DNA of 64,000 nucleotides from contig JBBRDO010000001.1 in the NCBI GenBank assembly GCA_038203825.1, positions 64,590 to 128,589 on the forward strand. Direction: 5' to 3'. A program made the translations under genes and the position numbers. This DNA is from Chloroflexia bacterium (lineage in GTDB: Bacteria; Chloroflexota; Chloroflexia; QHBQ01; JADMIH01). The notes below the pieces were generated by a model. The model had not been told where the DNA came from and did not search any database. It worked only from the letters and a program-made list of their open reading frames with translations. This document shows, in pieces, positions 10,377 through 46,151 of this stretch. Position 1 is the first letter of the stretch; each line of letters begins with the position of its first letter.

Positions 10377-11441
10377 ATGGCTCTGTCAACGGACGCTGGC
10401 AACGGTGCCACAATGCCCGACCAACAAGCTGAACTCGGCGGTACCGCCGATGCTCGGGACATCTATGACGTGACGATTATTGGGGCCGGTCCAACCGGCC
10501 TATTTGGTGCATTTTACGCCGGGATGCGCACAATGAGAACCAAGATCATTGATGCTTTGCCTGAACCCGGGGGGCAGCTAACCGCTCTTTACCCCGAGAA
10601 ACTCATCTTTGATGCCCCGGGGTTTCCAAAGGTGATCGCGAAAGACCTGGTCAAGTTGCTGATGGAGCAGGCCGTGCAATGGAACCCGGCCGTTTGCCTG
10701 GGTGAGCGCGTGATGTCTCTGGCCCAGGATACCGACGGCATCTGGATACTGACTACCGACAAGATCACGCACTACACGCGCACGGTCGTAGTAGCAGCAG
10801 GCGTCGGCGCATTCGCACCAAACAAGTTGGCGGTTGCCGATGTTGAGAAGTACGAAGGCAACAGCCTCTTCTACTTTGTTAAGGAGAAGGCAGCTTTCAA
10901 GGGTAAGCGACTCTTGATTGTGGGAGGTGGCGATTCGGCCGTGGACTGGGCTATCAACCTTCACGGGGTTGCAGAGGCGATCACACTCGTCCACCGCCGC
11001 GACGAGTTCCGCGCGCACGAGAGCTCAGTTACGGAGATGCGGGCTCTGCCTATCGACATACTTACGCCGTTCGAAGTGAAATCGGTTGTCGGCAACGGCA
11101 AGATTGAGAAGGTTGTTATTTTCAACAACCAGACCAAAGAGGAAACCGCTCTGGATGTGGATGCGATCCTGGTGAACGTTGGCTTCAAAGCTGATATCGG
11201 CCCGATTCGCGAGTGGGGTCTGGAGCTTGACAAGAAAGGCCGTGGTGTCGTGGTGAATTTCCGCATGGAAACCAACCTGCCCGGGGTCTTTGCCGCCGGT
11301 GACATTGCTGCCGAGGAAGTCAAAATGAACCTTATCGCGACAGGCTACGGGCAGGCTGCCATGGCCGTCAACGTCGCCAAGAACTTCGTTGACCCCAAGT
11401 CCAGCATCTTCCCCGGTCACAGTAGCGAGAAGTTGTCATGA
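10377..11441 (+). CDS. Ferredoxin-NADP+ reductase, thioredoxin-reductase-like type
   Basis: 354 aa. Motifs: YDVTIIGAGPTGLFGAFYAG, PGGQLTALYPEK.IFD.PGFP, a second dinucleotide site LIVGGGDSAVDWA, and FAAGDIA. This pattern matches YumC-type FNR. Confidence 0.8.
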   Translation: MALSTDAGNGATMPDQQAELGGTADARDIYDVTIIGAGPTGLFGAFYAGMRTMRTKIIDALPEPGGQLTALYPEKLIFDAPGFPKVIAKDLVKLLMEQAVQWNPAVCLGERVMSLAQDTDGIWILTTDKITHYTRTVVVAAGVGAFAPNKLAVADVEKYEGNSLFYFVKEKAAFKGKRLLIVGGGDSAVDWAINLHGVAEAITLVHRRDEFRAHESSVTEMRALPIDILTPFEVKSVVGNGKIEKVVIFNNQTKEETALDVDAILVNVGFKADIGPIREWGLELDKKGRGVVVNFRMETNLPGVFAAGDIAAEEVKMNLIATGYGQAAMAVNVAKNFVDPKSSIFPGHSSEKLS

Positions 11442-31192: not shown

Positions 31193-31648
31193 TCAGCGTG
31201 CCCCTGGTTTTGACTTACCTTCGAGAATGTCCTTCATCCGCTCAAGACTCTGCTGATTCTCAGCCGGCACCTGCTCCTTCCGCATCAACAGTATCTGCTC
31301 TCCGAGCGTACCAATCGGTTCAAAGCGGACGCTCTGCACGAGATGCGTGCCGCCGTTTCGCCCGCTCAATGCCATGGTCCAGCGTGTTCGAAATATCTGG
31401 TAATCAGTGGACTCCCAGCCGATTAGAGTAGGTCGATCGAGTGCGCTAATGCGCGCAAAGCTCACAAGTTCTTGCGGCAAGGTTTCGCTAGCTTTGAACT
31501 CGGTGCCCACGCCAACAGGCCCGGGCGTAACCTGCTCAAGCTTCGCAACGCTCATTGACCACTCAGCATGCCGCCAAAAATCTGCCAGGTAACCATACAC
31601 GTCGTCAGGCGGCCTGGCAATATCGATACTTGTCTCATACTCCCACAT
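31193..31648 (-). CDS. SRPBCC (START/polyketide cyclase-like) ligand-binding protein
   Basis: 151 aa. The opening MWEYETSIDIARPPDDVYGYLADFWRHAEWS is the typical SRPBCC N-terminal pattern. It overlaps the upstream cyclase gene by 14 nt. Confidence 0.7.
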   Translation of the reverse strand: MWEYETSIDIARPPDDVYGYLADFWRHAEWSMSVAKLEQVTPGPVGVGTEFKASETLPQELVSFARISALDRPTLIGWESTDYQIFRTRWTMALSGRNGGTHLVQSVRFEPIGTLGEQILLMRKEQVPAENQQSLERMKDILEGKSKPGAR

Positions 31649-34600
31649 GTTGTCCCCCTCCTATGACCTTTCGTACGTGAGCCGTCGCTAGAAACGAATT
31701 GCGTAGCGAAGGCTGCGGCAGTCGCTCAGCAATATGCGCAATTATACCTTGCGCCTCCTCACGGTATGCTTCAGCCGTGAGCGCGTTTCCCCGAGCTCTT
31801 TCGAGCTCGGCCAGGGCGATGAGGATTTGCCACAGGTCCCAAGGCGCGCCCAGCGTTTCCGCCTCAGCACGCCCTTGCTCCAGGCTCTCACCCGCAGCTT
31901 GGGCTTGTCCGAGCTCCCGCTGCGCCCGCGCAAGAATGAAAAGCGTCTCCGGAATGAACAGACGCATCTCGGAAGTGCGTATTTGGTTAAGAAACGCCTG
32001 CGCCAAATTGAGGACACCCGCGTAATCATTTTGCGCCATGCTGAGGTGGAGACTCCCAAACGTTATAAATGCCGAAAAAAGTGGGTCATAGTTGTGCTCA
32101 GTGCCTTGATACGACTTCATGAGTGACGCTGCTTTATCGAGTTTTCCGGCCAGCAAAAGGGTTTGGATGAGCGACGCTGCCGCATAGGGGCTTAATGCCG
32201 CATAGTGCGCTACTGCAAATTCAAGAGCGCGCTCCGCGAACTGGATGCCCTGTGAGGTCGCGCCCAGCTTGGCATAAACGATGGCAAGATCCGCGCGAGT
32301 TATCACTTGCGGGATGAGATAACCAGACAAATCACTCAAGCGCAGCGTTTCCTCCATCGACTCGATAGCTCTTCCCGGCTCGCCACACGCCCAATAGACC
32401 ATGCCTACGGTGGATAGACTGTAGGTTTGCCCCCACAGATTGCCTATAGACCGGCTAATCTTGAGGGCCTCTTCACCTGCCTGGAGCGTATTCGGAAAGT
32501 CGCCGTGGAAGATTCCATTTAGCGCCATTGTCGCTAGACTGTCGGCGAGCATCGGGAGGTTGCCGAGTTCGCGCCACAGCCGCGTCGCTTCCTCTATCGT
32601 GGCTCTTGCCTGGGCGAAATCTCCGCTAAAAGTATAGACATGGGCGCTATCGTTGAGCGTGAACGCCAATTGCTCCCGCAGGTTCAACTCACGCGCGATT
32701 GCCGCCGATTTTTCACCGGCGGTACGCGCTTCCTCCAATCGACGCGTTAGACGATAAAGATTACACAGATTCCAGTAAACTTTGGCCTCGACTACGCGGT
32801 CGTTTAACTCCCGCGCCATTTGCGCGGTGCGATTCGCCAGCTCCTCTCCCAGATCCGGATTGAATTCCGGATTCGGAGTGCAGCGGATCTGGCACTGCGC
32901 TGCTAATGCCGCCAGCTCCAGACCGCGGTCGCCGCGCGTCCGGGCGAGGGCTTGCATCTCCTCATAATAGTCTAACGCAGCTTTGAACTGCGAGGCCAAT
33001 TCCAACACACGCCCACGTCGCTGGAGCAAATCGCACAGCAATTGGCTGCCTGCGCCTGAATCGCGGCGGGCAAGATTCAGAGCGCGTGTGTAATGCGTTA
33101 GGGCCTCGACGTTGGCATGCACGCGCGCGGCCACACCTCCGGCGCGCATCGAGAACTCTAGCGCCTTCACATCGTTACCGGCCTCGGCATAGTGTTGTGC
33201 CAACAGCGGAGAGTATTCGTCCAACTGATCGGCAAACATCTGCTCTATCGATTCTGCGACGTAGAGATGAATCTTGCGCCGCGATTGTTTCAGCAAAGTG
33301 GCGTACGCCGTCTCTTGCGTGAGCGCATGTTTGAAGATGTAGGCCGGATCGATCTCTTTGGTGCGCCGTAGGAGTTGCGCGGCTTCAAGTTTGTCAAGTT
33401 GCTTTTCAACCGGCAACGTCCATTCCTTTGTCACCTGCATTTCCAGAACACGCTCCAACACTTTGACGCTAAATTTGCGCCCGATCACCGCCGCAATTTG
33501 TAGTATGTGTTTCGCCACTTCGGACAGTTGATCGATACGCGCGGTCAACACGCCTTGCAGGGTGTCGGGGATATCGATGCTGCTGATTTCATGTGTAACG
33601 ACCCACTGACCGGCCTGGAACGCGATGCCGCCGCGATCAATCAGCATCCGCAAGACTTCCTCCACGAAGAACGGATTGCCATCAGCTTTAGCGAGGATCA
33701 ACTGCCGGAGCGATTCGGGCAGCGATTCGACATTGAGCAAGTTGTTGATGAGCTGCCGGCTGTCGTCCTCCGAAAGCGGCGCGAGGTAGACCTCGGTGGC
33801 GCCTATACCCGCGATTTCGCGCGCCTGCGCGATCAATTTCCAGCCTGCCGATGTTGGGTCGTTACGTGTGACAAACACAAAGACAACCGGGGCGTTCGCC
33901 GCAATCGGGATGATTTGCGAGCAAAGCTCAGTGGAGGAGGGGTCTGCCCAGTGAATGTCCTCGCACACGATGACGAGCGGCGCGGTATGCGACAGCGCCT
34001 GCAGCAATCGTTTGTACGCGGCGATGTATTGCGCTTGCAGAGCGGGGCCCTCGAGATATTTCACGCGTGCCGCCGCTTCGTCTTCCAATCTCAATCCGAG
34101 CAAATGGCCCAGGAATGGATAGATTTCTCTGCCGTCGGCGCCCAAAGAGTCGAGCGTGTGCCGGAGCGCGGCGTGTGTCTCTTCTGCCGACGAGCCCGAT
34201 GGAGCGCTGATCAGCGCGCGCAAAATCTCTGTGCTAAGATGATGCGCAATGGATGAGGCGTAGGACAAACAGCGTGCTTCTATCCAGCGCACCGGAGGGT
34301 CCATTTCGGTGAAAGCGGCTTTGCGCCATTCGGCAATCAGACGTGACTTACCCAGTCCAGCCTCGCCAATGACGGCTATAATTGAACCCTCTCCCGTGCG
34401 CGCGTCCGAAATGACTTGCATCAATGTCGAGAATTCGCGTTGGCGACCGACCATGGGCGAAGCCAACCCCGCGATGCCGCGCGTTTGAGTAACGCCCTTG
34501 CGCTCGCTGATCGGCCGATACGTTTGAACCGATTCTTCTTTGCCTTTAACGGCGATCTTGCCGAAATCCTCGAATTCAAACAATGGCGCAATGAGCCGAT

Positions 34601-35339
34601 GCGTGCTCTCTGAAATGAGAATCGTGTTCGGTTCGGCAGCGGTCTGCATCCGCGAGGCAAGATTGATTGCATCACCCATCGCGGTATATTCCGATTTCAA
34701 GTTATTACCTATGTTTCCGACGACGACGAGTCCGGTGTTTAAGCCGATGCGGACACCAAAGTCCAGACCTTGTTCCGATTGCAGTTTTTCGCGGTACTGA
34801 TTCATACCGGAGAGAATAGCGAGCGCGGCCAGCACACCGCGCTGAGGGTCGTCTTCATGCGCAATGGGCGCGCCGAAGAACGCCAGGATCGCGTCGCCCA
34901 TTAGCCGCGCGACTATGCCCTCGTAGCGGTAAATAGGCTCAATAAGAAACTCAAACGCGCTGTTCATGATCTCGGCCCAGTCTTCCGGGTCAAGTTTCTC
35001 CGCCAGGGCTGTCGATCCTTTGATATCGGCAAAGAGAATCGTGACGATGCGGCGCTCGCCTTCGACACCCCCTGCGAGCGCGGCGGCAATTTTGGACGCT
35101 ATCTCTTTTGTCACATATCGATCGATTAGTGCTTGTGGTGATGCGGCGGCGCGAACGGGTGTTGCCGGGGGTGCTGCCGAGGGCGCAGGGTGCAGAGTGT
35201 AACCGCAATTCTTGCAAAAGCGCGCACCTGGCGACGTGGGCCTGCCGCAGTTGGGGCATGTCATCTCCAGCGACTTGCCACAGTTCTCGCAGAACTTTGC
35301 GTCACCGGGATTTTCAAACGAGCAGTTTGTGCATTTCAT
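31635..35339 (-). CDS. Double zinc-ribbon + class III adenylate/guanylate cyclase + STAND P-loop NTPase + TPR signalling protein
   Basis: 1234 aa. Zinc ribbons: CTNCSFENPGDAKFCENCG and CPNCGRPTSPGARFCKNCG. Cyclase domain: VTILFADIKGSTAL...RLMGDAILAFFGAP...RIGLNTGLVVVGNIG...YTAMGDAINLASRM. Walker A: GEAGLGKSRL. The C-terminal half has degenerate TPR-like repeats. Confidence 0.88.
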   Translation of the reverse strand: MKCTNCSFENPGDAKFCENCGKSLEMTCPNCGRPTSPGARFCKNCGYTLHPAPSAAPPATPVRAAASPQALIDRYVTKEIASKIAAALAGGVEGERRIVTILFADIKGSTALAEKLDPEDWAEIMNSAFEFLIEPIYRYEGIVARLMGDAILAFFGAPIAHEDDPQRGVLAALAILSGMNQYREKLQSEQGLDFGVRIGLNTGLVVVGNIGNNLKSEYTAMGDAINLASRMQTAAEPNTILISESTHRLIAPLFEFEDFGKIAVKGKEESVQTYRPISERKGVTQTRGIAGLASPMVGRQREFSTLMQVISDARTGEGSIIAVIGEAGLGKSRLIAEWRKAAFTEMDPPVRWIEARCLSYASSIAHHLSTEILRALISAPSGSSAEETHAALRHTLDSLGADGREIYPFLGHLLGLRLEDEAAARVKYLEGPALQAQYIAAYKRLLQALSHTAPLVIVCEDIHWADPSSTELCSQIIPIAANAPVVFVFVTRNDPTSAGWKLIAQAREIAGIGATEVYLAPLSEDDSRQLINNLLNVESLPESLRQLILAKADGNPFFVEEVLRMLIDRGGIAFQAGQWVVTHEISSIDIPDTLQGVLTARIDQLSEVAKHILQIAAVIGRKFSVKVLERVLEMQVTKEWTLPVEKQLDKLEAAQLLRRTKEIDPAYIFKHALTQETAYATLLKQSRRKIHLYVAESIEQMFADQLDEYSPLLAQHYAEAGNDVKALEFSMRAGGVAARVHANVEALTHYTRALNLARRDSGAGSQLLCDLLQRRGRVLELASQFKAALDYYEEMQALARTRGDRGLELAALAAQCQIRCTPNPEFNPDLGEELANRTAQMARELNDRVVEAKVYWNLCNLYRLTRRLEEARTAGEKSAAIARELNLREQLAFTLNDSAHVYTFSGDFAQARATIEEATRLWRELGNLPMLADSLATMALNGIFHGDFPNTLQAGEEALKISRSIGNLWGQTYSLSTVGMVYWACGEPGRAIESMEETLRLSDLSGYLIPQVITRADLAIVYAKLGATSQGIQFAERALEFAVAHYAALSPYAAASLIQTLLLAGKLDKAASLMKSYQGTEHNYDPLFSAFITFGSLHLSMAQNDYAGVLNLAQAFLNQIRTSEMRLFIPETLFILARAQRELGQAQAAGESLEQGRAEAETLGAPWDLWQILIALAELERARGNALTAEAYREEAQGIIAHIAERLPQPSLRNSFLATAHVRKVIGGGQHVGV

Positions 35340-36139: not shown

Positions 36140-39100
36140 CTAAGGAGCTACCACCAAACTGAGGTTCGACGTTTTGGCCAGCAGGTTCGTACCCCCGTCA
36201 GTCAACTGTAACCGGCCGCTTGAAAGGGGCGCGAAGTCAAGCTCAGTAGACCCTGCCTGTAGGGCGCGGAAGCGGATCGTGGCAAGTGTGAAGCGCCCTT
36301 GCGGTGGTGTGCCCTGCAACATCGACGTAGAGTAACCAATCGAGCCGCCCTGAGGGTCGATCCAGTTGCCCAGCACGGCAGGTAGGGCCACACCGGGTTC
36401 ACTCGAAGTGACTGCGTTACCATTCCTGTCAACGGGCGCGAGCCACGCCGGGTCGTATTTCAGATTGAACGCGCCGCCATCGACGGCCTGCCCGCCCGTG
36501 TTAGCCATCACAGACAGGACCACAATGTCACCGACTTTCACCGATGGGGCTGACGTCTGCAACTCCAGAGCGAGCCCGTGATCGAGGCCCGCCGGATTCA
36601 TCCATGGGGACAACTGCTGCTCGAACGTCGGAGCACCCTCGGCGCTGTCTGTGTGGAACTGCACGTCAGCAGAAATGTCACCGCACTTGTCAAAGCCCGA
36701 CCGCAGCAGGCTCACGTCTTCGGCGGTGACCTGACCGTCATTATTGAGGTCTGCGGAGGGATTCCAGCCCGGTGTATCCTTGTTCGCCCCGACCATCACC
36801 TGTACCACCTTGAAGTCATCGACCGTCACGCAGTTATCGCCGTCCACATCGCCCTCGACCTGCGACTTCATGTCGACCTCGGCAGCCTGATTGGCGCTCA
36901 GGCTGATGTTAGCGCGTGCGCTCTGTAGGCTGTGAAGGCCCTTCACATGAACGTCATAGGTGCCCTCGGGCAGACCGTTATAGACAGCCACGCCGTTCGG
37001 GTCAGTCGTCCCTGCATAGGAGCCTATCACCGCCGGATTGCCCGGAGCCGACAGTTGCAGGGTCAAGGGCTGTACCCACTGTTCGCTCGGGGGATTGGCC
37101 CGTCCCAGCCACTGAACCGACACCTTCAACGACGCATTCCCACTCGCTCCAGTCCGGCCCGGAACCGCGGGCGGGACTTCAGGTGCCTTTGCCTGCGGCG
37201 GGGCACCGCCTGAGCCTGCATCGCGCCTTGCCAGGGCAAATGCCAGTTTGGCAGTGCCTGACGAGCTCAGATACTGGATGCGCACGGTGTGGGCATATCC
37301 GTCAAGTTCGGTATTGTATTGCTCGGTGTGAGCCGAAGTTGCGTCCCATTTATTGATAGCCAGCAGGTTGTCTATCCAGACACGCACGCCGCCATCAGCG
37401 CTTATCGTCAGGTCATAGCTGCCCGCGTTGGGCTGCAACTGTCGCGTGAACTGGGCCGACCAGGCCGCCGAACCGAGGCCCATCGTTTGCGGCGCACCTG
37501 AACCTGCGGGCCAATCCATGCCGGGGTCGGGCTGCTCCATGACAAGAGCCGGCTGGCCGGGCAAGTCAAGCAGGGGACCTGTCAAAGACTGTGGCTGTGC
37601 GCCTATGTAATACTGAGCTTCCCAGCCGTTGAATTGCGTTGGCCAGGGCGTAAAGACGACGCTGCCGTTGCTATCTTGCAGGACGCCCTTCGAGAATCCC
37701 TGGCTCGGCGTGCCGCCGGCGGTTACATAGGGATCGGAGGTCGGGGCGCCTACCCATTCGGGCCCGGCGGGATCATGTGCCGCGTATTCGGCGCCGATAT
37801 TGCCCTCGAGCAAGAAGGCGCGTGAAATGCCGCTGACCTGGCTCTTCAACGTATCAAACACGAGCCACATATTCCCCTGTCCATTAGCTCCCGAAAACCG
37901 CTGGGCAACCACGTTGGCGTCGGTCACATAGGCCAGCCACCAGTGTACTTCGCTCACCGGTCTCCCCAGCAGGGCTTCGCCGCCATTGCGGTCGTATGCC
38001 TCGACGAAAACGTCAGGCTGCGTTGAGCCCTGCCCGATCGCTATCTGGGCTGGCCGCGAGGTCGGCATGGAAGGCGGCACCGGGGGCGGAGGCTCACCTG
38101 CGTTCGGCGAGCCCGGGGCTATCGTGGTGTCGGGATAATAGAACTGGCAGATCCATGTCCAGCTTTGCCCCTGGTCAGCGTAATATGCAGTGCCCCACTG
38201 GGTCATGTACTCGTTGGTCCAGGGGCAATCTGTCGACGGATCTGCGCTGTATGAACCCGCGCAATACTGCGCCTGAAATAGCTCATTGTTGCGCAGTAGA
38301 ACGTATGCCCATGTGGCATCAACCGCGGCGTCTGTGCTTGCGTAGCTGACGTTGGGGTCGTATACCTGGTCATCGGTGTTGTCCTTAACGTCTGCGCCGA
38401 GCGAAGCTTGCTTACCGCCCACGCTTATCCAGTACCACGCATATTCCTTGACGGCCATAGCGCCGGCGCGTAAAGATGCGGGCGCCCAGGTTGGAACCCA
38501 TTCATTGGGTAGCACGTGTTTCACATATTCCCTGAACGGCACCACGTCGACTGCACTCGTGCCCGTCCGGTAAACTCGAATATTATCGGGCGCAGACCAG
38601 GCGCTGGAAGCAGCCGCTGCCGATACGCCTCGGAGTATGCCCGGTTGCGCCACAAGAAGCGGCGCAGAAGGCATAAGGCTCGTGCCTGTTCTTACTGCCA
38701 TACCCGCGTTCAAAACCGATGGACCAATAGCCTGTTGCCGGCTTAGCGCAGTAACGCCGGCCGCAGCAGGAGAACCGGAGCGGAGCGCCGAAGCTAAGAG
38801 CATCTGGGCAGGCTTGTCGGATGTCTCAAGGTGAGCATACAACCGGAGAGTATCGCCCTGATAATAACGGGCGCTCTGCAACGTCCATGAACTGAAGCCG
38901 TCGGCCTGCACGGATACGTTTACGAGAGTGGCCTGCGACCCAATGGAGGATACCAACGCAGCGACCTGCGCCTTGCTGAACGAGAAGTGCCCAAGGCCGT
39001 CGGTCGTCGTGCGAGCACCTGACGCGAGGCTTACCGTGGCATCAGAAACCGGCACCTGAGCGCTCGTCGAGGAAACCCAGCCTTCGATGGCAGGTGTGCT

Positions 39101-39274
39101 GCTCTGGTCCTGACTTTCCGGCCTCGCACCTGACGGAGCAAAAGCACCGGGTGCCAGGGAACCGGCCCCTGAGGCGCCCAACAGACCCGCGCTGACCACC
39201 AGGAAAAGCGCCAGTGCTATTACCAGTTTTGGTGACTTCCATCTCCGACGTCTAGAGCGCATCGGGCCCTCCAC
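36140..39274 (-). CDS. Large secreted multi-domain protein: SpoIID/LytB-like + PA14 + carboxypeptidase-regulatory-like + dockerin + cohesin
   Basis: 1044 aa. Signal anchor: RRRRWKSPKLVIALALFLVVSAGLLGA. SpoIID-like: VVPFREYVKHVLPNEWVPTWAPASLRAGAMAVKEYAWYW. PA14-like: WEAQYYIG...GSYDLTISADGGVRVWIDNLLAINKWD. Dockerin Ca-binding pair: GDVDGDNCVTVDDF and ADLNNDGQVTAEDV. The C-terminal cohesin-like beta-sandwich reads VGDIVVLSVMANTGGQAVDGGAFNLKYDPAWL. Confidence 0.8.
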   Translation of the reverse strand: MEGPMRSRRRRWKSPKLVIALALFLVVSAGLLGASGAGSLAPGAFAPSGARPESQDQSSTPAIEGWVSSTSAQVPVSDATVSLASGARTTTDGLGHFSFSKAQVAALVSSIGSQATLVNVSVQADGFSSWTLQSARYYQGDTLRLYAHLETSDKPAQMLLASALRSGSPAAAGVTALSRQQAIGPSVLNAGMAVRTGTSLMPSAPLLVAQPGILRGVSAAAASSAWSAPDNIRVYRTGTSAVDVVPFREYVKHVLPNEWVPTWAPASLRAGAMAVKEYAWYWISVGGKQASLGADVKDNTDDQVYDPNVSYASTDAAVDATWAYVLLRNNELFQAQYCAGSYSADPSTDCPWTNEYMTQWGTAYYADQGQSWTWICQFYYPDTTIAPGSPNAGEPPPPVPPSMPTSRPAQIAIGQGSTQPDVFVEAYDRNGGEALLGRPVSEVHWWLAYVTDANVVAQRFSGANGQGNMWLVFDTLKSQVSGISRAFLLEGNIGAEYAAHDPAGPEWVGAPTSDPYVTAGGTPSQGFSKGVLQDSNGSVVFTPWPTQFNGWEAQYYIGAQPQSLTGPLLDLPGQPALVMEQPDPGMDWPAGSGAPQTMGLGSAAWSAQFTRQLQPNAGSYDLTISADGGVRVWIDNLLAINKWDATSAHTEQYNTELDGYAHTVRIQYLSSSGTAKLAFALARRDAGSGGAPPQAKAPEVPPAVPGRTGASGNASLKVSVQWLGRANPPSEQWVQPLTLQLSAPGNPAVIGSYAGTTDPNGVAVYNGLPEGTYDVHVKGLHSLQSARANISLSANQAAEVDMKSQVEGDVDGDNCVTVDDFKVVQVMVGANKDTPGWNPSADLNNDGQVTAEDVSLLRSGFDKCGDISADVQFHTDSAEGAPTFEQQLSPWMNPAGLDHGLALELQTSAPSVKVGDIVVLSVMANTGGQAVDGGAFNLKYDPAWLAPVDRNGNAVTSSEPGVALPAVLGNWIDPQGGSIGYSTSMLQGTPPQGRFTLATIRFRALQAGSTELDFAPLSSGRLQLTDGGTNLLAKTSNLSLVVAP

Positions 39275-41241: not shown

Positions 41242-41979
41242 TTGAAACCTATGCTGCTCCAGCAAAGCTATACCAGGTCGCAGGCGCCTTTAAGACGGCT
41301 CGCCCGCAAGTTATTACGCTGGCGATACCGCAAGTTCCAGCCGGAATCCCAGCCGGAACGGTCCGTGCGCGTGGGTGGGCTTCAGCTGAGCGTGCTACCT
41401 GACGTATTCAGCCCTAGCATCCATTTCACAAGCCGAGTGTTCGCGCGCTTTCTCTCTCGGCCGGGCGTCGTCCCGCAGGGCGGCAGTGTGCTTGACCTCG
41501 GCACCGGCTCCGGATTGCTGGCCATCGTAGCGGCCCGCTGTGGCGCCCGACGTGTGGTAGCAATCGACATCAACCCAGCAGCGGTCCATTGTGCCCGGGC
41601 AAATGCTGCACGCTATGGCTTACAGTCAATCATGGAGGTCCTTGAAGGCAACAGCTTTACCCCGGTGGCCGGCGAGCGATTCGACCTGGTTGTATGCAAC
41701 CCACCATATTTCCGCGGCGAACCTAAGAGCTTGGCGCAAAGCGCCTTTATGGGCGGCTCCGACCTTGAATGGGTCACGAACTTCGGCCGCGAACTTCATG
41801 ACCACCTCAACCAACGCGGGCACGCTCTCATAAGCCTGGGAGATGCGGCTGAGATCGATACCATTCTACGGCTGCTGCGCGAATGTGGATGGCGCATCGA
41901 CCAGGTATCCCGCCGCGATATACTTGTGGAGATCATCTACCTCTTCAAACTAACGTCGGATGTGGAAAAGAAAGCATGA
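41242..41979 (+). CDS. SAM-dependent methyltransferase with NPPY motif (HemK/Mtq2-related small-domain type)
   Basis: 245 aa. Motif I VLDLGTGSGLLAIVAA, then AIDINPAAV, and motif IV DLVVCNPPYF. The substrate (protein glutamine or nucleic acid) cannot be decided from the sequence. Confidence 0.7.
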   Translation: MKPMLLQQSYTRSQAPLRRLARKLLRWRYRKFQPESQPERSVRVGGLQLSVLPDVFSPSIHFTSRVFARFLSRPGVVPQGGSVLDLGTGSGLLAIVAARCGARRVVAIDINPAAVHCARANAARYGLQSIMEVLEGNSFTPVAGERFDLVVCNPPYFRGEPKSLAQSAFMGGSDLEWVTNFGRELHDHLNQRGHALISLGDAAEIDTILRLLRECGWRIDQVSRRDILVEIIYLFKLTSDVEKKA

Positions 41980-42087
41980 GTAAGATAGAGGCGATATATT
42001 AGTAACGAGAATGTCCCTTCTCGGAACATATAGTGCGTCGCCACTCATAACCACCGAAATCTCCCCACCAAGCAAGGAGGCCCTATA

Positions 42088-42867
42088 TTGACCTTTATTA
42101 TCACAGTCTACGTTAACGAAGGTATCGTCATGGCGAGCGATAGTCGTCTCACTTTGAGTCGTACCCTTACCAATGAGAATGCGTTCAAAGCCCAACAGAA
42201 CCAGGTGCTGATGGACATAGTGCAATCGGACGCCAACTTCAAGTTGTTCCTCGCCCCCAACGGCGTGGGAATCTCGACCTGTGGTGACGCCAGCGTAAAT
42301 GGCGAGCCACTTGCCGGGTTCATCGAAGCCTTTATGGATGAGGAGATCGCCCAGGTATTCAACTCGCCCGTCGAGGGCGACGACGTTATAGAGGGGACCG
42401 AAGTAGATAAAGTGGCGGACCAGCTTCTCGAATATTTTAAGAAGCTGCCCGGACCGCCTGACACGGCCTTCCACGTCGCGGGCTATAAGACCGAAGGCGC
42501 AAAGCGCGTTCAGCAAATTTGGCGCGTGTCTGTGAAATCGGGCGAGAAGACGCTCGTGAACTCCAACGGCGAGAAGGGCGTGCTGTGGGACGGCGAGGGC
42601 GACGTCATGTACCGACTAATGCAGCCCATCTATCGCAAGAATGACCGGGGAGAGTACGTGTCAATGGAAAACCCTGAGGTTGCCTTCCACTACTTCACGA
42701 TACAGGACGCCATAGACTTCGCTGTTTACGCCACGCGCACCACCGTCGAGACCATCCGCTTCGTCGCTACACGTTCAAAGACTGTGGGCGGTCCCATCGA
42801 CGTGCTGGTGATCAAGCCCCGCGATACGTTCTGGGTGCAGCGGAAACAACTGCAGGTGAACCCATGA
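42088..42867 (+). CDS. Proteasome beta/HslV-like (MEROPS T1-like) N-terminal nucleophile hydrolase, orphan
   Basis: AAGGAGG lies 7 nt before the TTG start. The sequence MTFIITVYVNEGIVMASDSRLTLSRTLTNENAFKAQ puts Thr1, Asp17 and Lys33 at canonical positions once the initiator Met is removed. Later segments NFKLFLAPNGVGISTCGDAS and VGGPIDVLVIKPRD resemble conserved proteasome-fold strands. Confidence 0.6.
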   Translation: MTFIITVYVNEGIVMASDSRLTLSRTLTNENAFKAQQNQVLMDIVQSDANFKLFLAPNGVGISTCGDASVNGEPLAGFIEAFMDEEIAQVFNSPVEGDDVIEGTEVDKVADQLLEYFKKLPGPPDTAFHVAGYKTEGAKRVQQIWRVSVKSGEKTLVNSNGEKGVLWDGEGDVMYRLMQPIYRKNDRGEYVSMENPEVAFHYFTIQDAIDFAVYATRTTVETIRFVATRSKTVGGPIDVLVIKPRDTFWVQRKQLQVNP

Positions 42868-43919
42868 ACCGGAACGTTCATACTGACCACAGCAGCGCGA
42901 GTGAGCGCACGGATCAGGTCGATTTCGTGCAGATACCCCTCCCTCCCGCAAGCACCGGCCTCGTCTCCAACCCGCAAGGATTAATCTCGCAGGTCCGAGC
43001 CACGGCAGCCGATCAGCACCCTGCTGCCGTCTACCTCTCGCACTTAGCGCCCGGCTCCCGAAGGACGATGCGTGGCGCGCTGGACACCATGGCGGGCCTG
43101 CTCACGGCCCAGCGGTTTGATATGCAAACTCTTGACTGGAGCGCCCTACGATACCAGCATACCACGGCCCTGCGCACAATTCTGGCAGACCTGTATGCTC
43201 CGGCAACTGCCAACAAAATGCTCGCCGCCCTGCGAGGCGTACTTCAGGAGGCCTGGAGGCTCGGCAAGATGAGCGCCGAGGAATTCCGTCGTGCAGCCGA
43301 CCTCCCCGCCGTGCGCGGCAGCACCCTTCCTCGTGGGCGAGCCGTCTCGCGATCCGAGCTTGTGGGCCTGTTCGAAGCCTGTGCTCTGGACAAGACTCCG
43401 GCCGGTCGCCGTGACGCCGCGATTCTGGCGGTGTTGTACAACTGCGGGTTGCGCCGCAGTGAGCTCGTAGCCCTCGATGTAGCTGACTACGACCCCGAAG
43501 AGGGCTCGGTCACGGTTCAAAGCGGCAAGGGAAGAAAGGCTCGCATAAGCTATGCTACAGAAGTTAGCCATAGGGCGATCCAAGCCTGGCTACAATTACG
43601 CACATCCAGCCCGGGCCCCTTGTTCACGCCGGTAAACAAGGCCGGCAAGATTGCCCTGCGGCGCATGAGCGATCAAGCTGTCCGCAAGCTGTTGCTAAAA
43701 CGCGCCGCCGAGGCGGGCGTGGCGCATTTCTCCCCTCACGACCTGCGTCGCACCATGATCAGCGACCTGCTGGACGCAGGCGCCGATATATCAACCGTAC
43801 AGCGCCTCGCAGGACACGCCAATGTCACTACCACTGCCCGCTACGACAGGAGGGGCGAAACGGCCAAGAGACGTGCCGCCAATCTCCTGAATGTGCCTCT
43901 CACCAAAGAGGACAGATAG
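42864..43919 (+). CDS. Tyrosine recombinase / phage-type integrase
   Basis: 351 aa. It has a SAM-like N-terminal domain (AAVYLSHLAPGSRRTMRGALDTMAGLL). Catalytic residues: GLRRSELVALDV (Arg), HDLRRT (His-x-x-Arg), GHANVTTTARYDRR (His...Tyr). Its ATG overlaps the upstream stop (ATGA). Confidence 0.88.
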   Translation: MNRNVHTDHSSASERTDQVDFVQIPLPPASTGLVSNPQGLISQVRATAADQHPAAVYLSHLAPGSRRTMRGALDTMAGLLTAQRFDMQTLDWSALRYQHTTALRTILADLYAPATANKMLAALRGVLQEAWRLGKMSAEEFRRAADLPAVRGSTLPRGRAVSRSELVGLFEACALDKTPAGRRDAAILAVLYNCGLRRSELVALDVADYDPEEGSVTVQSGKGRKARISYATEVSHRAIQAWLQLRTSSPGPLFTPVNKAGKIALRRMSDQAVRKLLLKRAAEAGVAHFSPHDLRRTMISDLLDAGADISTVQRLAGHANVTTTARYDRRGETAKRRAANLLNVPLTKEDR

Positions 43920-43991: not shown

Positions 43992-45317
43992 ATGTCAGAC
44001 GAAGCACGAGATCTGCTCATATACGGCGTGGCGGCTGCCCAGGCTAACAGTCCGGACGAAGCTCGCAACTACCTGGAGTGGGTCCTCCGCACTGATGCTG
44101 ATCCCGACCAGCAGGCCGAGGCCTGGTACTGGCTCAGCTACATTGCCGTCGAGCCTCGCGAGAAGCGAGACTGCCTGGAGAACGTCCTGGCTCTCAGTCC
44201 ACGTTACCCTGAGGCGCTGCGCGACATGGCGCTACTGGACGGCAGGCTCAAGCAGTCAGACATGCACGACCCGCGCTTCACCGTCCCACCTGTATCGCCT
44301 TCCGCGAGCCCCACAGCCGCTGAAACCCAATCCTACAAATGTCCTCGCTGTGGGGCCAGAATGACGGCGCAGGAGCCATCAGGAGCGCTCGTGTGCGGTT
44401 TTTGCGGCTATAAGCCTGGCGTCGAGAGTCCGTCCGATCAACCGAAAGGAGTCGACGAGCAGGATTGGGTGGCCGCGATCTACGCTGTACAGGGGCACAA
44501 GTGGGAACTGCCCACCGAGCGCTCGTTCAAGTGCGCATCCTGTGGGGCCCTGGTGTTGTTACCACCCTCACAAATAAGCTCGGAATGCCCCTTCTGCGGA
44601 GTGCCCTACGTCACTCATGCGGTCGAGGAAAGGGAGCTAATTGAACCGAACGGTCTGACTCCGTTCGCGTTCTCTGCGGGCGAGGCCTACGCCTTCGTTG
44701 GCAAGTGGTTGCAACAACACAAGCTTGACTCTGACGGACGGTCCCCAACGACCCAGGTGCCTCCTCGCCCTATCTTTATCCCTTTCTGGACCTTTGATAT
44801 GGATGGAGAAATCTCCTGGCGGGGATGGCAAATCAGCACCCAGAACCGAAGGTTCGTACGGGTACCTGCCGGCGGCACCGTGCCACTCTATTATGACGAT
44901 GTGCCGGTGCCTGCCACATACTCTTTACCCACCGAACTACTATCTCGTCTACAATACGACATGCATACAATAGCACCCTATTCGCCGGACTCTTTAGCAA
45001 GTTGGCCGGCCGAAATATACAGTATCTCGGTGGCCGATGGCTCTGTACGTGCGCTCGAGCGTGCCTACAAGTCCCCGCAGACGCAGGCATTAATAAGCAA
45101 TAGCGTTTCCAGCGCAGGCAACATAGAGGACCTGCAGGTTGAGAGCCCTCGACTGAGCGTCACCTCTTACAAGCTCCTGATGCTCCCGGTTTGGGTTGGA
45201 GCGTACACTTACGAGGAAGAGAGCTACAGCGTCGTTGTCAACGGACAATCCGGCGTTGTCGAAGGTGCTGAACCGGACCGTCACCTTAAGGGCTTCCTGA
45301 ATGGTCTATTAGGGTAA
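43992..45317 (+). CDS. TPR-like N-terminus + two zinc-ribbon motifs + conserved C-terminal domain; function unknown
   Basis: 441 aa. The helical repeat region is ARNYLEWVLRTDADPDQQAEAWYWLSYI...ALSPRYPEALRDMA. The zinc ribbons are CPRCGARM..VCGFCGY and CASCGALV..ECPFCGV. The C-terminus is YKLLMLPVWVGAYTYEEESYSVVVNGQSGVVEG. Confidence 0.55.
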   Translation: MSDEARDLLIYGVAAAQANSPDEARNYLEWVLRTDADPDQQAEAWYWLSYIAVEPREKRDCLENVLALSPRYPEALRDMALLDGRLKQSDMHDPRFTVPPVSPSASPTAAETQSYKCPRCGARMTAQEPSGALVCGFCGYKPGVESPSDQPKGVDEQDWVAAIYAVQGHKWELPTERSFKCASCGALVLLPPSQISSECPFCGVPYVTHAVEERELIEPNGLTPFAFSAGEAYAFVGKWLQQHKLDSDGRSPTTQVPPRPIFIPFWTFDMDGEISWRGWQISTQNRRFVRVPAGGTVPLYYDDVPVPATYSLPTELLSRLQYDMHTIAPYSPDSLASWPAEIYSISVADGSVRALERAYKSPQTQALISNSVSSAGNIEDLQVESPRLSVTSYKLLMLPVWVGAYTYEEESYSVVVNGQSGVVEGAEPDRHLKGFLNGLLG

Positions 45318-45365: not shown

Positions 45366-46151
45366 ATGGACCTGGTATTCGGCAAGACAAGAGAGAGGGT
45401 TGCTAAGTGGGCCGCCGACCCGGAGGTGCTGGGCGTTCTGCTGGTGGGCTCGCGCAGTCGGGGAAACGCTGACGCTCTTTCGGACGATGACCTTGAAGTA
45501 ATAGTCACCGAAGAAGCCGCCGCCCGAATCAGCGCCGCTGACTGCAGCGATGTTCTGATTGAGGGCAAAGGGGAGTCACGCAAGATGATCTACGACGCCC
45601 AGTACCTTTCACTGGGCGCGCTCCTCGAAAAGGAGGCTTCATACGTTGACCTCGATCACTGGCCGTACGAACGCGCCAGGGTCCTTTTCAGCCGAGACGC
45701 CGAGCTTGCGACCATAGTTGAGCGTCTGGGAGCCATGCCTGCCGACTTTAGAACCAAGCGCCTTATCCATTCGACCATAGATGCGTGGATACCGCCCTAT
45801 CGAGCAAACAAGTGCCTCAAACGCGGCCAGACGGCCTCGGCACATCTGCTTGTGGCCAGGGGTGCGCGGGCATTGTCGCGCCTCGTCTTTGCGCTCGAAT
45901 GGAGGTGGGTGCCGCTGGACCACTGGCTCGAGCCGGAGTTGCGAACACTAAGCGATGAAGCGCACGTTGGCCCGCTGATTGTCCAGGCATTGAATAGCGG
46001 TGAGCCCCAGCCACTGCAGGATGCCTTGAACGCTCTTGAACCCGCGCTTCACGCAGCCGGTGTGCCGGGGCCCGCAGAACGCCGCGATCTGTTCATGGAA
46101 CTCGTCCACCCCTCTCGTTCAAAGGAGCGCGCTATACATGGACTCCAGTAG
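45366..46151 (+). CDS. Nucleotidyltransferase-fold protein (KNTase/ANT-like) with a helical C-terminal domain
   Basis: 261 aa. Its minimal NTase motif LLVGSRSRGNADALSDDDLEV matches G-S-x(n)-D-x-D. AGGAG lies upstream of the ATG. Confidence 0.6.
   Translation: MDLVFGKTRERVAKWAADPEVLGVLLVGSRSRGNADALSDDDLEVIVTEEAAARISAADCSDVLIEGKGESRKMIYDAQYLSLGALLEKEASYVDLDHWPYERARVLFSRDAELATIVERLGAMPADFRTKRLIHSTIDAWIPPYRANKCLKRGQTASAHLLVARGARALSRLVFALEWRWVPLDHWLEPELRTLSDEAHVGPLIVQALNSGEPQPLQDALNALEPALHAAGVPGPAERRDLFMELVHPSRSKERAIHGLQ

Follow-up and report, generated by a model that had tools for sequence, protein, structure and literature searches.

Twenty-two new prokaryotic homologs of the proteasome were described by Fuchs, Alva and Lupas in 2021, all built on a conserved beta-sheet core with a Thr1/Ser1-Asp17-Lys33 triad and Gly47 (PMC8665760). 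They have no propeptides, many of them carry insertions at the S3/S4, post-H1/H2 and H3/H4 sites, and the authors report no genomic context and no co-occurring AAA+ partner (PMC8665760). Here we analyze a gene for a 259-amino-acid protein whose family fits this class of homologs. It lies in a 64,000-nucleotide window, the whole stretch of DNA that was analyzed, from a Chloroflexia bacterium (positions 64,590-128,589 of contig JBBRDO010000001.1, assembly GCA_038203825.1); all coordinates below are those of the window. The gene for this putative hydrolase is followed immediately by one for a tyrosine recombinase, and a preliminary description of the DNA had proposed that a T1-like peptidase and a recombinase are functionally paired. 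We consider it probable instead that the hydrolase is a stand-alone member of a widespread family of proteasome-like N-terminal nucleophile (Ntn) hydrolases, and that its adjacency to the recombinase is a matter of local gene order in one Chloroflexia lineage.

Predicted fold and active site of the hydrolase

To assign a fold to the hydrolase, we compared predicted structures and sequence profiles with those of known proteasome subunits. An AlphaFold model built on 35 homologs had a predicted local distance difference test score (pLDDT) of 78, and a model built on 108 diverse homologs reached a pLDDT of 93.5 with a predicted template modeling score (pTM) of 0.90. Foldseek searches of the Protein Data Bank (PDB) at E<=1e-3 returned 383 matches for the earlier model and 437 for the 108-homolog model. 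The top 50 listed PDB matches are all 20S proteasome chains, with a probability of 1.0 and target-normalized template modeling (TM) scores of up to 0.78, and the beta subunit of Thermoplasma acidophilum (6bdf_1) is matched at E=2.4e-8 with a TM score of 0.73. The best match among viral models, at E=4.7e-11 and TM 0.79, is a phage protein that carries the annotation "proteasome beta."

Profile comparison points in the same direction. An hhalign alignment of the 108-member profile (A2) with T. acidophilum beta, whose reference sequence was confirmed to be identical to PDB 3c91_H, gave E=4.4e-6, with 176 columns aligned collinearly at a probability of 87%. The same comparison was marginal when based on the shallow alignment A1 (E=0.012), and the deeper A2 was required. 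When each of the 108 members was scanned against Pfam at E<=1, the proteasome family PF00227 was found weakly in 52 (best match 1.9e-5), the connectase N-terminal domain PF09894 was found weakly in 10, and any other family in no more than 3.

Several results weigh against this assignment. A direct Pfam scan of the window hydrolase gave no match, and neither the curated PF00227 threshold nor an NCBIfam threshold is reached by this protein; its NCBIfam match is a sub-threshold one to the archaeal beta subunit model TIGR03634, confined to residues 2-37 (E=0.017, 14.7 bits against a cut-off of 224). Searches of PDB sequences with the single protein and with the first profile returned nothing for the hydrolase, and the profile alignment offers no clear counterpart for Ser129, Asp166 and Ser169 of the proteasome. 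A PHROGs search with the hydrolase yielded a C-terminal motif match only. Taken together, the Foldseek matches, the hhalign alignment and the PF00227 matches among family members make a proteasome-like Ntn fold well supported, the predicted structure being an alpha-beta-beta-alpha sandwich of the proteasome-beta/HslV type that would be superimposable on 20S beta. The preliminary description had named this fold, and both structure and family profile bear it out, although the direct search with PF00227 does not.

The profile alignment to T. acidophilum beta places residues of the hydrolase in register with the proteasome active site, with Thr2 aligned to Thr1, Asp18 to Glu17, Arg20 to Arg19, Lys52 to Lys33 and Gly66 to Gly47. 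The features of the hydrolase gene are the following.

42074..42080, + strand: Shine-Dalgarno-like AAGGAGG, 7 nucleotides 5' of the TTG start codon of the hydrolase, read from the sequence
42088..42867, + strand: gene for the proteasome-like (T1-type Ntn) hydrolase homolog, 259 amino acids, from open reading frame (ORF) calling, fold and family profile
42091..42093, + strand: Thr2 codon, predicted N-terminal nucleophile, in register with proteasome Thr1
42139..42141, + strand: Asp18 codon, equivalent to proteasome Asp/Glu17 (Asp in 104/108 members, Glu in 4/108)
42148..42228, + strand: extended beta-hairpin, residues 21-47, a ~13-18-residue insertion between the Asp and Lys strands (S3/S4 site), from the model and a gap in the hhalign alignment
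42187..42189, + strand: Lys34 codon, taken as "Lys33" in the preliminary description; not conserved, its column gapped in 100/108 members and lying inside the variable hairpin insert
42241..42243, + strand: Lys52 codon, predicted conserved catalytic lysine, equivalent to proteasome Lys33 (Lys in 103/108)
42283..42285, + strand: Gly66 codon, equivalent to oxyanion-hole Gly47 (Gly in 104/108)
42349..42402, + strand: H1-H2 loop, residues 88-105, with a ~12-residue acidic stretch (alignment A1; lowest pLDDT, ~69)
42622..42699, + strand: insertion with a small beta-hairpin between H3 and H4, residues 179-204, from the model and an hhalign gap relative to proteasome beta

The hydrolase ORF runs from TTG at 42088 to TGA at 42865-42867; this TTG is the first start codon past an in-frame stop, and the ORF cannot begin 5' of it. 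Ser occupies position 2 in 91 of the 108 members, Thr in 14, Ala in 2 and Pro in 1. In the 169 sequences with a locatable N-terminal motif, the residue that precedes the nucleophile could in every case be encoded by a start codon, and in 133 this preceding residue is residue 1. Because this placement holds throughout the family, there is no propeptide, as had been proposed for the window protein. Methionine aminopeptidase prefers small second residues, as in Escherichia coli HslV, and would suffice on its own to expose the nucleophile. Stripping of the initiator Met would leave Thr2, or Ser in most members, to serve as both nucleophile and free amine, acting together with Asp18 and Lys52 and with the oxyanion hole at Gly66 in the manner of Thr1, Asp17, Lys33 and Gly47 of proteasome beta. 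A protein so equipped would be expected to be catalytically competent.

The preliminary description had gone further and reported the exact Thr1/Asp17/Lys33 spacing of the proteasome. Thr2, Asp18 and Lys34 are indeed present, and the Thr and Asp positions are conserved, but the functional lysine is predicted to be Lys52, and the match at Lys34 is a coincidence because its column is gapped in nearly all homologs. The long hairpin between the Asp and Lys strands, modeled as strands 21-28 and 39-47 and coinciding with the hhalign gap relative to proteasome beta, means that the spacing in this family differs from that of the proteasome. The acidic stretch in the H1-H2 loop is found only in sequences at least 58% identical to the window hydrolase in alignment A1. 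Around the H3/H4 insertion, the model shows a helix at residues 172-178, strands at 182-184 and 190-192, and a second helix at 205-225. Insertions at H3/H4 have been argued to possibly prevent the stacking of double rings (PMC8665760).

Partners of the kind that accompany known proteasomes are missing from the window. No second proteasome-like ORF was detected in the 64 kb with the family hidden Markov model (HMM) or with phmmer searches using beta and HslV sequences. No unfoldase was found among the tested window ORFs, where the P-loop proteins are limited to ABC ATPases and a protein combining adenylate cyclase, AAA_16 and tetratricopeptide repeat (TPR) domains, and none of the Anbu partners (ATP-grasp, alpha-E and transglutaminase) lies within 6-8 kb in the window. 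These HMM, phmmer and P-loop checks agree with the earlier statement that the window holds no alpha subunit, unfoldase or Anbu-operon partner. With a hairpin at the active site, an H3/H4 insertion and no partner, the hydrolase may more plausibly be a substrate-specific peptidase or transpeptidase than a gated degradation barrel.

Distribution of the family and kinship with known proteasome homologs

Homologs of the hydrolase are abundant, forming 2009 clusters at 90% identity and 1914 representatives at 50% identity, 227 of the latter below 1e-30. Listed members have no Pfam domain and are labeled "hypothetical," with an occasional JGI annotation as "20S proteasome alpha/beta subunit." In GTDB, sampled at one genome per species, we located 258 hydrolase loci, and the best 80 of these (L001-L080) were used for the survey of genomic context. 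The best 80 of the 258 come from Chloroflexota, Methanoregula and other Methanomicrobiales, Bathyarchaeota, Bacteroidota, Firmicutes, Deltaproteobacteria, Acidobacteriota, Caldisericota and others, and all 80 are from metagenome-assembled genomes (MAGs). The family is widespread in bacteria and archaea, has no curated Pfam or NCBIfam model and is biochemically uncharacterized; no later characterization of it turned up in the literature.

Some relatives are associated with predicted viral sequence. Under numeric IMG genome-style identifiers, the only relatives seen are two copies of 33-36% identity, located on the borders of predicted prophage regions (L166 and L167). In a set of IMG/VR contigs (L170-L181; for example, L170:4957-6165), predicted prophages encode a distantly related protein of 402 amino acids, of the PHROG 5990 type. 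It shares the motifs M-TAEIGI..., GIVLASDSA, AKKLF and ETVGGPIDVLAITP, and its core is split by a helix-rich insertion of ~120 residues. It may represent a further "multiple insertion" proteasome homolog, carried by phages.

Within the class described by Fuchs et al., the clusters designated PMI (for a proteasome homolog that has multiple insertions) are like the window family in the core, the triad, the Gly oxyanion hole and the lack of a propeptide. The likeness extends to the S3/S4 and H3/H4 insertions, to a spread across bacteria and euryarchaea, to the lack of an AAA+ partner and to an uninformative genomic context. However, the insertion pattern of the window family is not exactly that of any single PMI type, and the PMI clusters were all much smaller in nr in 2020 than the window family is in metagenomes, with its ~1,900 clusters at 50% identity. 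The family accessions recovered here (HEC21779.1, HST04802.1 and MEE9547757.1) differ from the published PMI representatives, and the two groups are likened by features and distribution only.

Other members of the superfamily stand at varying distances. HslV and its Bacillus counterpart CodW share the Ntn fold with the hydrolase, and in them the nucleophile is exposed by Met removal alone, as proposed here; Bacillus CodW (ClpQ) is reported to have an N-terminal Ser (PMC7468587; bioRxiv 10.1101/2024.10.15.618472). However, the hhalign comparison of the family profile with E. coli HslV was not significant (E=0.19), and HslV has HslU as its partner, whereas the window and the family neighborhoods are without HslU. 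The window hydrolase is also longer than HslV/CodW by ~65-85 residues because of its three insertions. The 20S beta subunit (PF00227, MEROPS T1) is the best structural match, with a collinear profile and with the triad and Gly47 in register, but differs from the hydrolase in having a propeptide and an alpha subunit. Further differences from 20S beta are the below-threshold Pfam score of the hydrolase, its insertions and the Ser nucleophile of most family members.

Adjacency to the recombinase and alternative readings

The start of the recombinase gene overlaps the stop codon of the hydrolase gene, and the recombinase gene is followed by two further genes on the same strand.

42864..42867, + strand: ATGA, the hydrolase stop codon overlapping the first ATG of the recombinase, a 4-nucleotide overlap of the two ORFs
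42864..43919, + strand: gene for a tyrosine recombinase, Xer-like, 351 amino acids (PF00589, E=2.5e-29)
43992..45317, + strand: gene for a protein with TPR repeats and two zinc ribbons, 441 amino acids (weak TPR and zinc-ribbon matches only)
45366..46151, + strand: gene for a nucleotidyltransferase/DUF4037 protein, 261 amino acids (PF13228, E=9.8e-8), closing a four-gene array conserved in the clade

The recombinase scores 102.7 bits against Pfam Phage_integrase (PF00589), for which the cut-off is 27.1, and its catalytic set is complete (R197, K, H292-x-x-R295, H318 and Y327), in keeping with its original identification as a complete tyrosine recombinase. It falls below the equivalog cut-offs of TIGR02224 (XerC; 127 bits against 335) and TIGR02225 (XerD; 100 against 330), and variability is seen over its first ~45 residues, which are not part of the catalytic fold. 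We regard it as an independent recombinase of the chromosome, Xer-like in type. The TTG start, the AAGGAGG 7 nucleotides upstream and the ATGA overlap that first drew attention to the locus are all present in the sequence. Overlaps of 4 nucleotides are commonplace, another joining two ORFs of the same window at 11438-11441, and the one at the hydrolase-recombinase junction is not special.

To ask how far the pairing extends, we examined it from both gene sides. When the window recombinase was searched by tblastn against the 80 hydrolase loci, an adjacent copy was found only in L001-L003, three loci from Chloroflexia MAGs that have hydrolases of 80-88% identity to that of the window and in which the four-gene array (hydrolase, recombinase, TPR/zinc-ribbon and DUF4037 genes) is syntenic. 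The TPR/zinc-ribbon gene is recorded as syntenic in L001-L003 and L081, and the DUF4037 gene in L002, L003 and L081. Four other hydrolase loci have a distant integrase-like gene within 8 kb that is not adjacent. Usable immediate neighbors numbered 139 genes, at 72 of the 80 loci. A Pfam census of these genes recovered 165 families with a highest count of 4, and the three occurrences of Phage_integrase are those of L001-L003. The 25 most frequent families of this census include none of the AAA+ type. ATP-grasp appears in 2 of the 139 neighbors, and these two match D-Ala-D-Ala ligase families as well. When all ORFs of the 80 loci were clustered by BLAST, no widely common neighbor family emerged.

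Certain neighbors do recur, among them response regulators, SDR proteins, an S9-type peptidase, adenosylhomocysteine (AdoHcy) hydrolase and ABC ATPases. Judged by sequence alone, these clusters look generic or like lineage synteny, and one further "cluster" proved to be an antisense ORF of the hydrolase gene itself. A large S9-type protein, prolyl oligopeptidase-like by the same standard, lies within 8 kb in 8 of the 80 loci, in several phyla (L015, L021, L023, L025, L037, L040, L043 and L055). We rejected it as a partner, as it is seldom adjacent and its position varies; its proximity may be a mild enrichment or chance.

Beyond close relatives the pairing dissolves. The recombinase is still present beside hydrolase relatives of 76% and 78% identity. 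In a relative at 59% the gene that follows is a DJ-1/PfpI gene, and in one at 51% genes for sugar-nucleotide enzymes follow on the other strand, neither with a recombinase. Among 80 metagenome recombinase loci, the hydrolase lies upstream only in the relatives at 96% and 78%. Neither tblastn nor the family HMM detected a hydrolase in ~60 recombinase relatives of 50-74% identity, although 2-3.5 kb of sequence was available upstream of many of them, and their contexts vary. The junction also varies within the clade: the overlap of 4 nucleotides in the window, L001 (GTGA) and L082 (ATGA) gives way to gaps of 7 nucleotides in L081, 25-52 in L003 and at least 45 in L002. Because the adjacency is confined to close relatives, is absent beyond them from both gene sides and has no fixed junction, it constitutes a shallow, lineage-specific gene order, found in one Chloroflexia clade with hydrolase identity of at least ~76%, rather than a conserved functional module. 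A functional pairing of the T1-like peptidase with the recombinase is thus not supported by the survey, with an integrase adjacent at only 3 of 72 loci and the ~60 recombinase relatives lacking a hydrolase; neither the pairing nor the 4-nucleotide overlap recurs beyond the clade. Since homologs are mostly without a recombinase, the module idea fails on the ground that the preliminary description had itself named.

That description also knew of no pairing of a T1-type peptidase with a recombinase, which overlooks Bacillus. There, Slack et al. (1995) reportedly found the operon order codV(xerC-like)-codW(hslV)-codX-codY, in which the recombinase precedes the hydrolase, the reverse of the order in the window. 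We know of no functional link reported for the codV-codW pair. The identity of codV as a XerC homolog is documented (PMC4447404), and a T1-type peptidase gene beside a tyrosine recombinase gene is therefore not unprecedented.

One observation weighs against reading the adjacency as mere gene order: the clade keeps hydrolase and recombinase co-directional, at a spacing of -4 to ~+50 nucleotides, over 76-98% hydrolase identity. The four-gene array is probably co-transcribed in this Chloroflexia clade, and the hydrolase might have been recruited into it as an operon, where it would act upon the recombinase or together with it, for instance through trimming of the variable N-terminal extension of the recombinase. 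The same-strand arrangement with short spacers, conserved in the window, L001-L003, L081, L082, L085 and L087, is consistent with such an operon, as are the 4-nucleotide overlaps in three of its members and a variable stretch of ~45 residues outside the catalytic fold of the recombinase. Nevertheless, hydrolase and recombinase are apart in almost every other genome examined, the overlap becomes a gap of 7 to at least 45 nucleotides within the clade, and vertical inheritance of gene order would give the same conservation at so shallow a depth. Co-transcription also need not mean common function, as in the Bacillus codVWXY operon. We therefore regard a functional clade-specific operon as quite unlikely, and its more specific form, a lineage-specific switch in which the captured hydrolase regulates the recombinase by proteolysis, such as by processing the N-terminal extension, as very improbable. 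The proposal that the pair belongs to a cryptic integrative or defense element, as its cargo gene and its integrase, is largely refuted and seems to us extremely improbable. The recombinase does adjoin a patchily distributed gene, the spread of the family over distant phyla at 40-50% identity is suggestive of horizontal transfer, and a few hydrolase relatives lie in predicted viral contigs. However, the window contains no tRNA gene, no att-like repeat was found and the repeats flanking the pair are at chance level, and the GC content at third codon positions of the hydrolase (GC3, 0.715) matches that of its neighbors, all of which argues against a mobile element. Among clade members, synteny extends over the locus and its flanks, no PADLOC defense model matches the hydrolase or the recombinase, and tblastn against cultured phages and plasmids gave no match. 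The surroundings are those of an ordinary chromosome, with cell-envelope, ABC-transporter and lipid-metabolism genes that include a SpoIID/PA14 secreted protein, a PMT_2 glycosyltransferase, a HemK/PrmA-like methyltransferase, a cupin, an ABC-2 transporter and PlsY.

A different question is what chemistry a stand-alone hydrolase would perform. Like archaeal connectase (MJ0548, PF09894), it could be a sequence-specific ligase or transpeptidase, in which the same fold and triad lead to another chemical outcome. Connectase is likewise an orphan proteasome homolog with an insertion at S3/S4 beside the active site, the place of its specificity element (PMC8665760); the window family has an insertion at that site, is without an unfoldase partner, and includes the 10 of 108 members that weakly match PF09894. 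The window hydrolase itself has no PF09894 match, however, and PF00227 matches are five times commoner in the family. Its insert is a beta-hairpin where connectase has a lid of two helices, both H1 and H2 are present where connectase has neither, and connectase is restricted to methanogens whereas the window family is not. A connectase-like activity therefore appears unlikely, and we continue to favor a proteasome-like Ntn hydrolase that stands alone, next to its recombinase through lineage-specific gene order.

Neighboring genes and significance of the family

The 441-amino-acid protein downstream of the recombinase has N-terminal TPR repeats, two CxxC zinc ribbons and a C-terminal region of ~230 residues without a Pfam match; its gene is always 3' of the recombinase in the Chloroflexia clade and is not found beside more distant recombinase relatives. 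The DUF4037 protein that follows (45366-46151) has weak PADLOC matches to the candidate system PDC-S09 (E=1.7e-4). In L136, a DUF4037 relative of 52% identity comes after a recombinase relative, with a 134-amino-acid ORF between the two and no TPR/zinc-ribbon gene. Promoter and terminator scans gave counts like those of shuffled sequence. On the opposite strand, an antisense ORF of 188 amino acids (41950-42516, - strand) covers the 5' half of the hydrolase gene, and antisense ORFs of other loci group with it (cluster c5). These antisense ORFs appear to be by-products of the conserved sense sequence and not genes.

Upstream of the hydrolase, also on the - strand, a 1234-amino-acid signaling protein (31635-35339) has a double zinc ribbon and an adenylate/guanylate cyclase domain together with an AAA_16 ATPase and TPR repeats. 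Another gene of that strand (36140-39274, - strand) encodes a 1044-amino-acid secreted protein with SpoIID, PA14 and CarboxypepD_reg domains. As the latter adjoins the PMT_2 glycosyltransferase, the local context is one of cell-envelope functions.

The neighborhood survey speaks against pursuing this locus as a new peptidase-recombinase system, and its interest does not rest on the recombinase. The locus rather exemplifies, cleanly and with high confidence, a family of proteasome homologs that is very large, with its ~1,900 clusters distributed over bacterial phyla and methanogens and mostly bearing an N-terminal Ser. For characterization of the family, the analysis offers a predicted catalytic map consisting of Ser/Thr2, Asp18, Lys52 and Gly66. 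It is the size of the family and its uncharacterized state that give the locus its interest, and the family strengthens the case that prokaryotes commonly have proteasome-like enzymes that stand alone.

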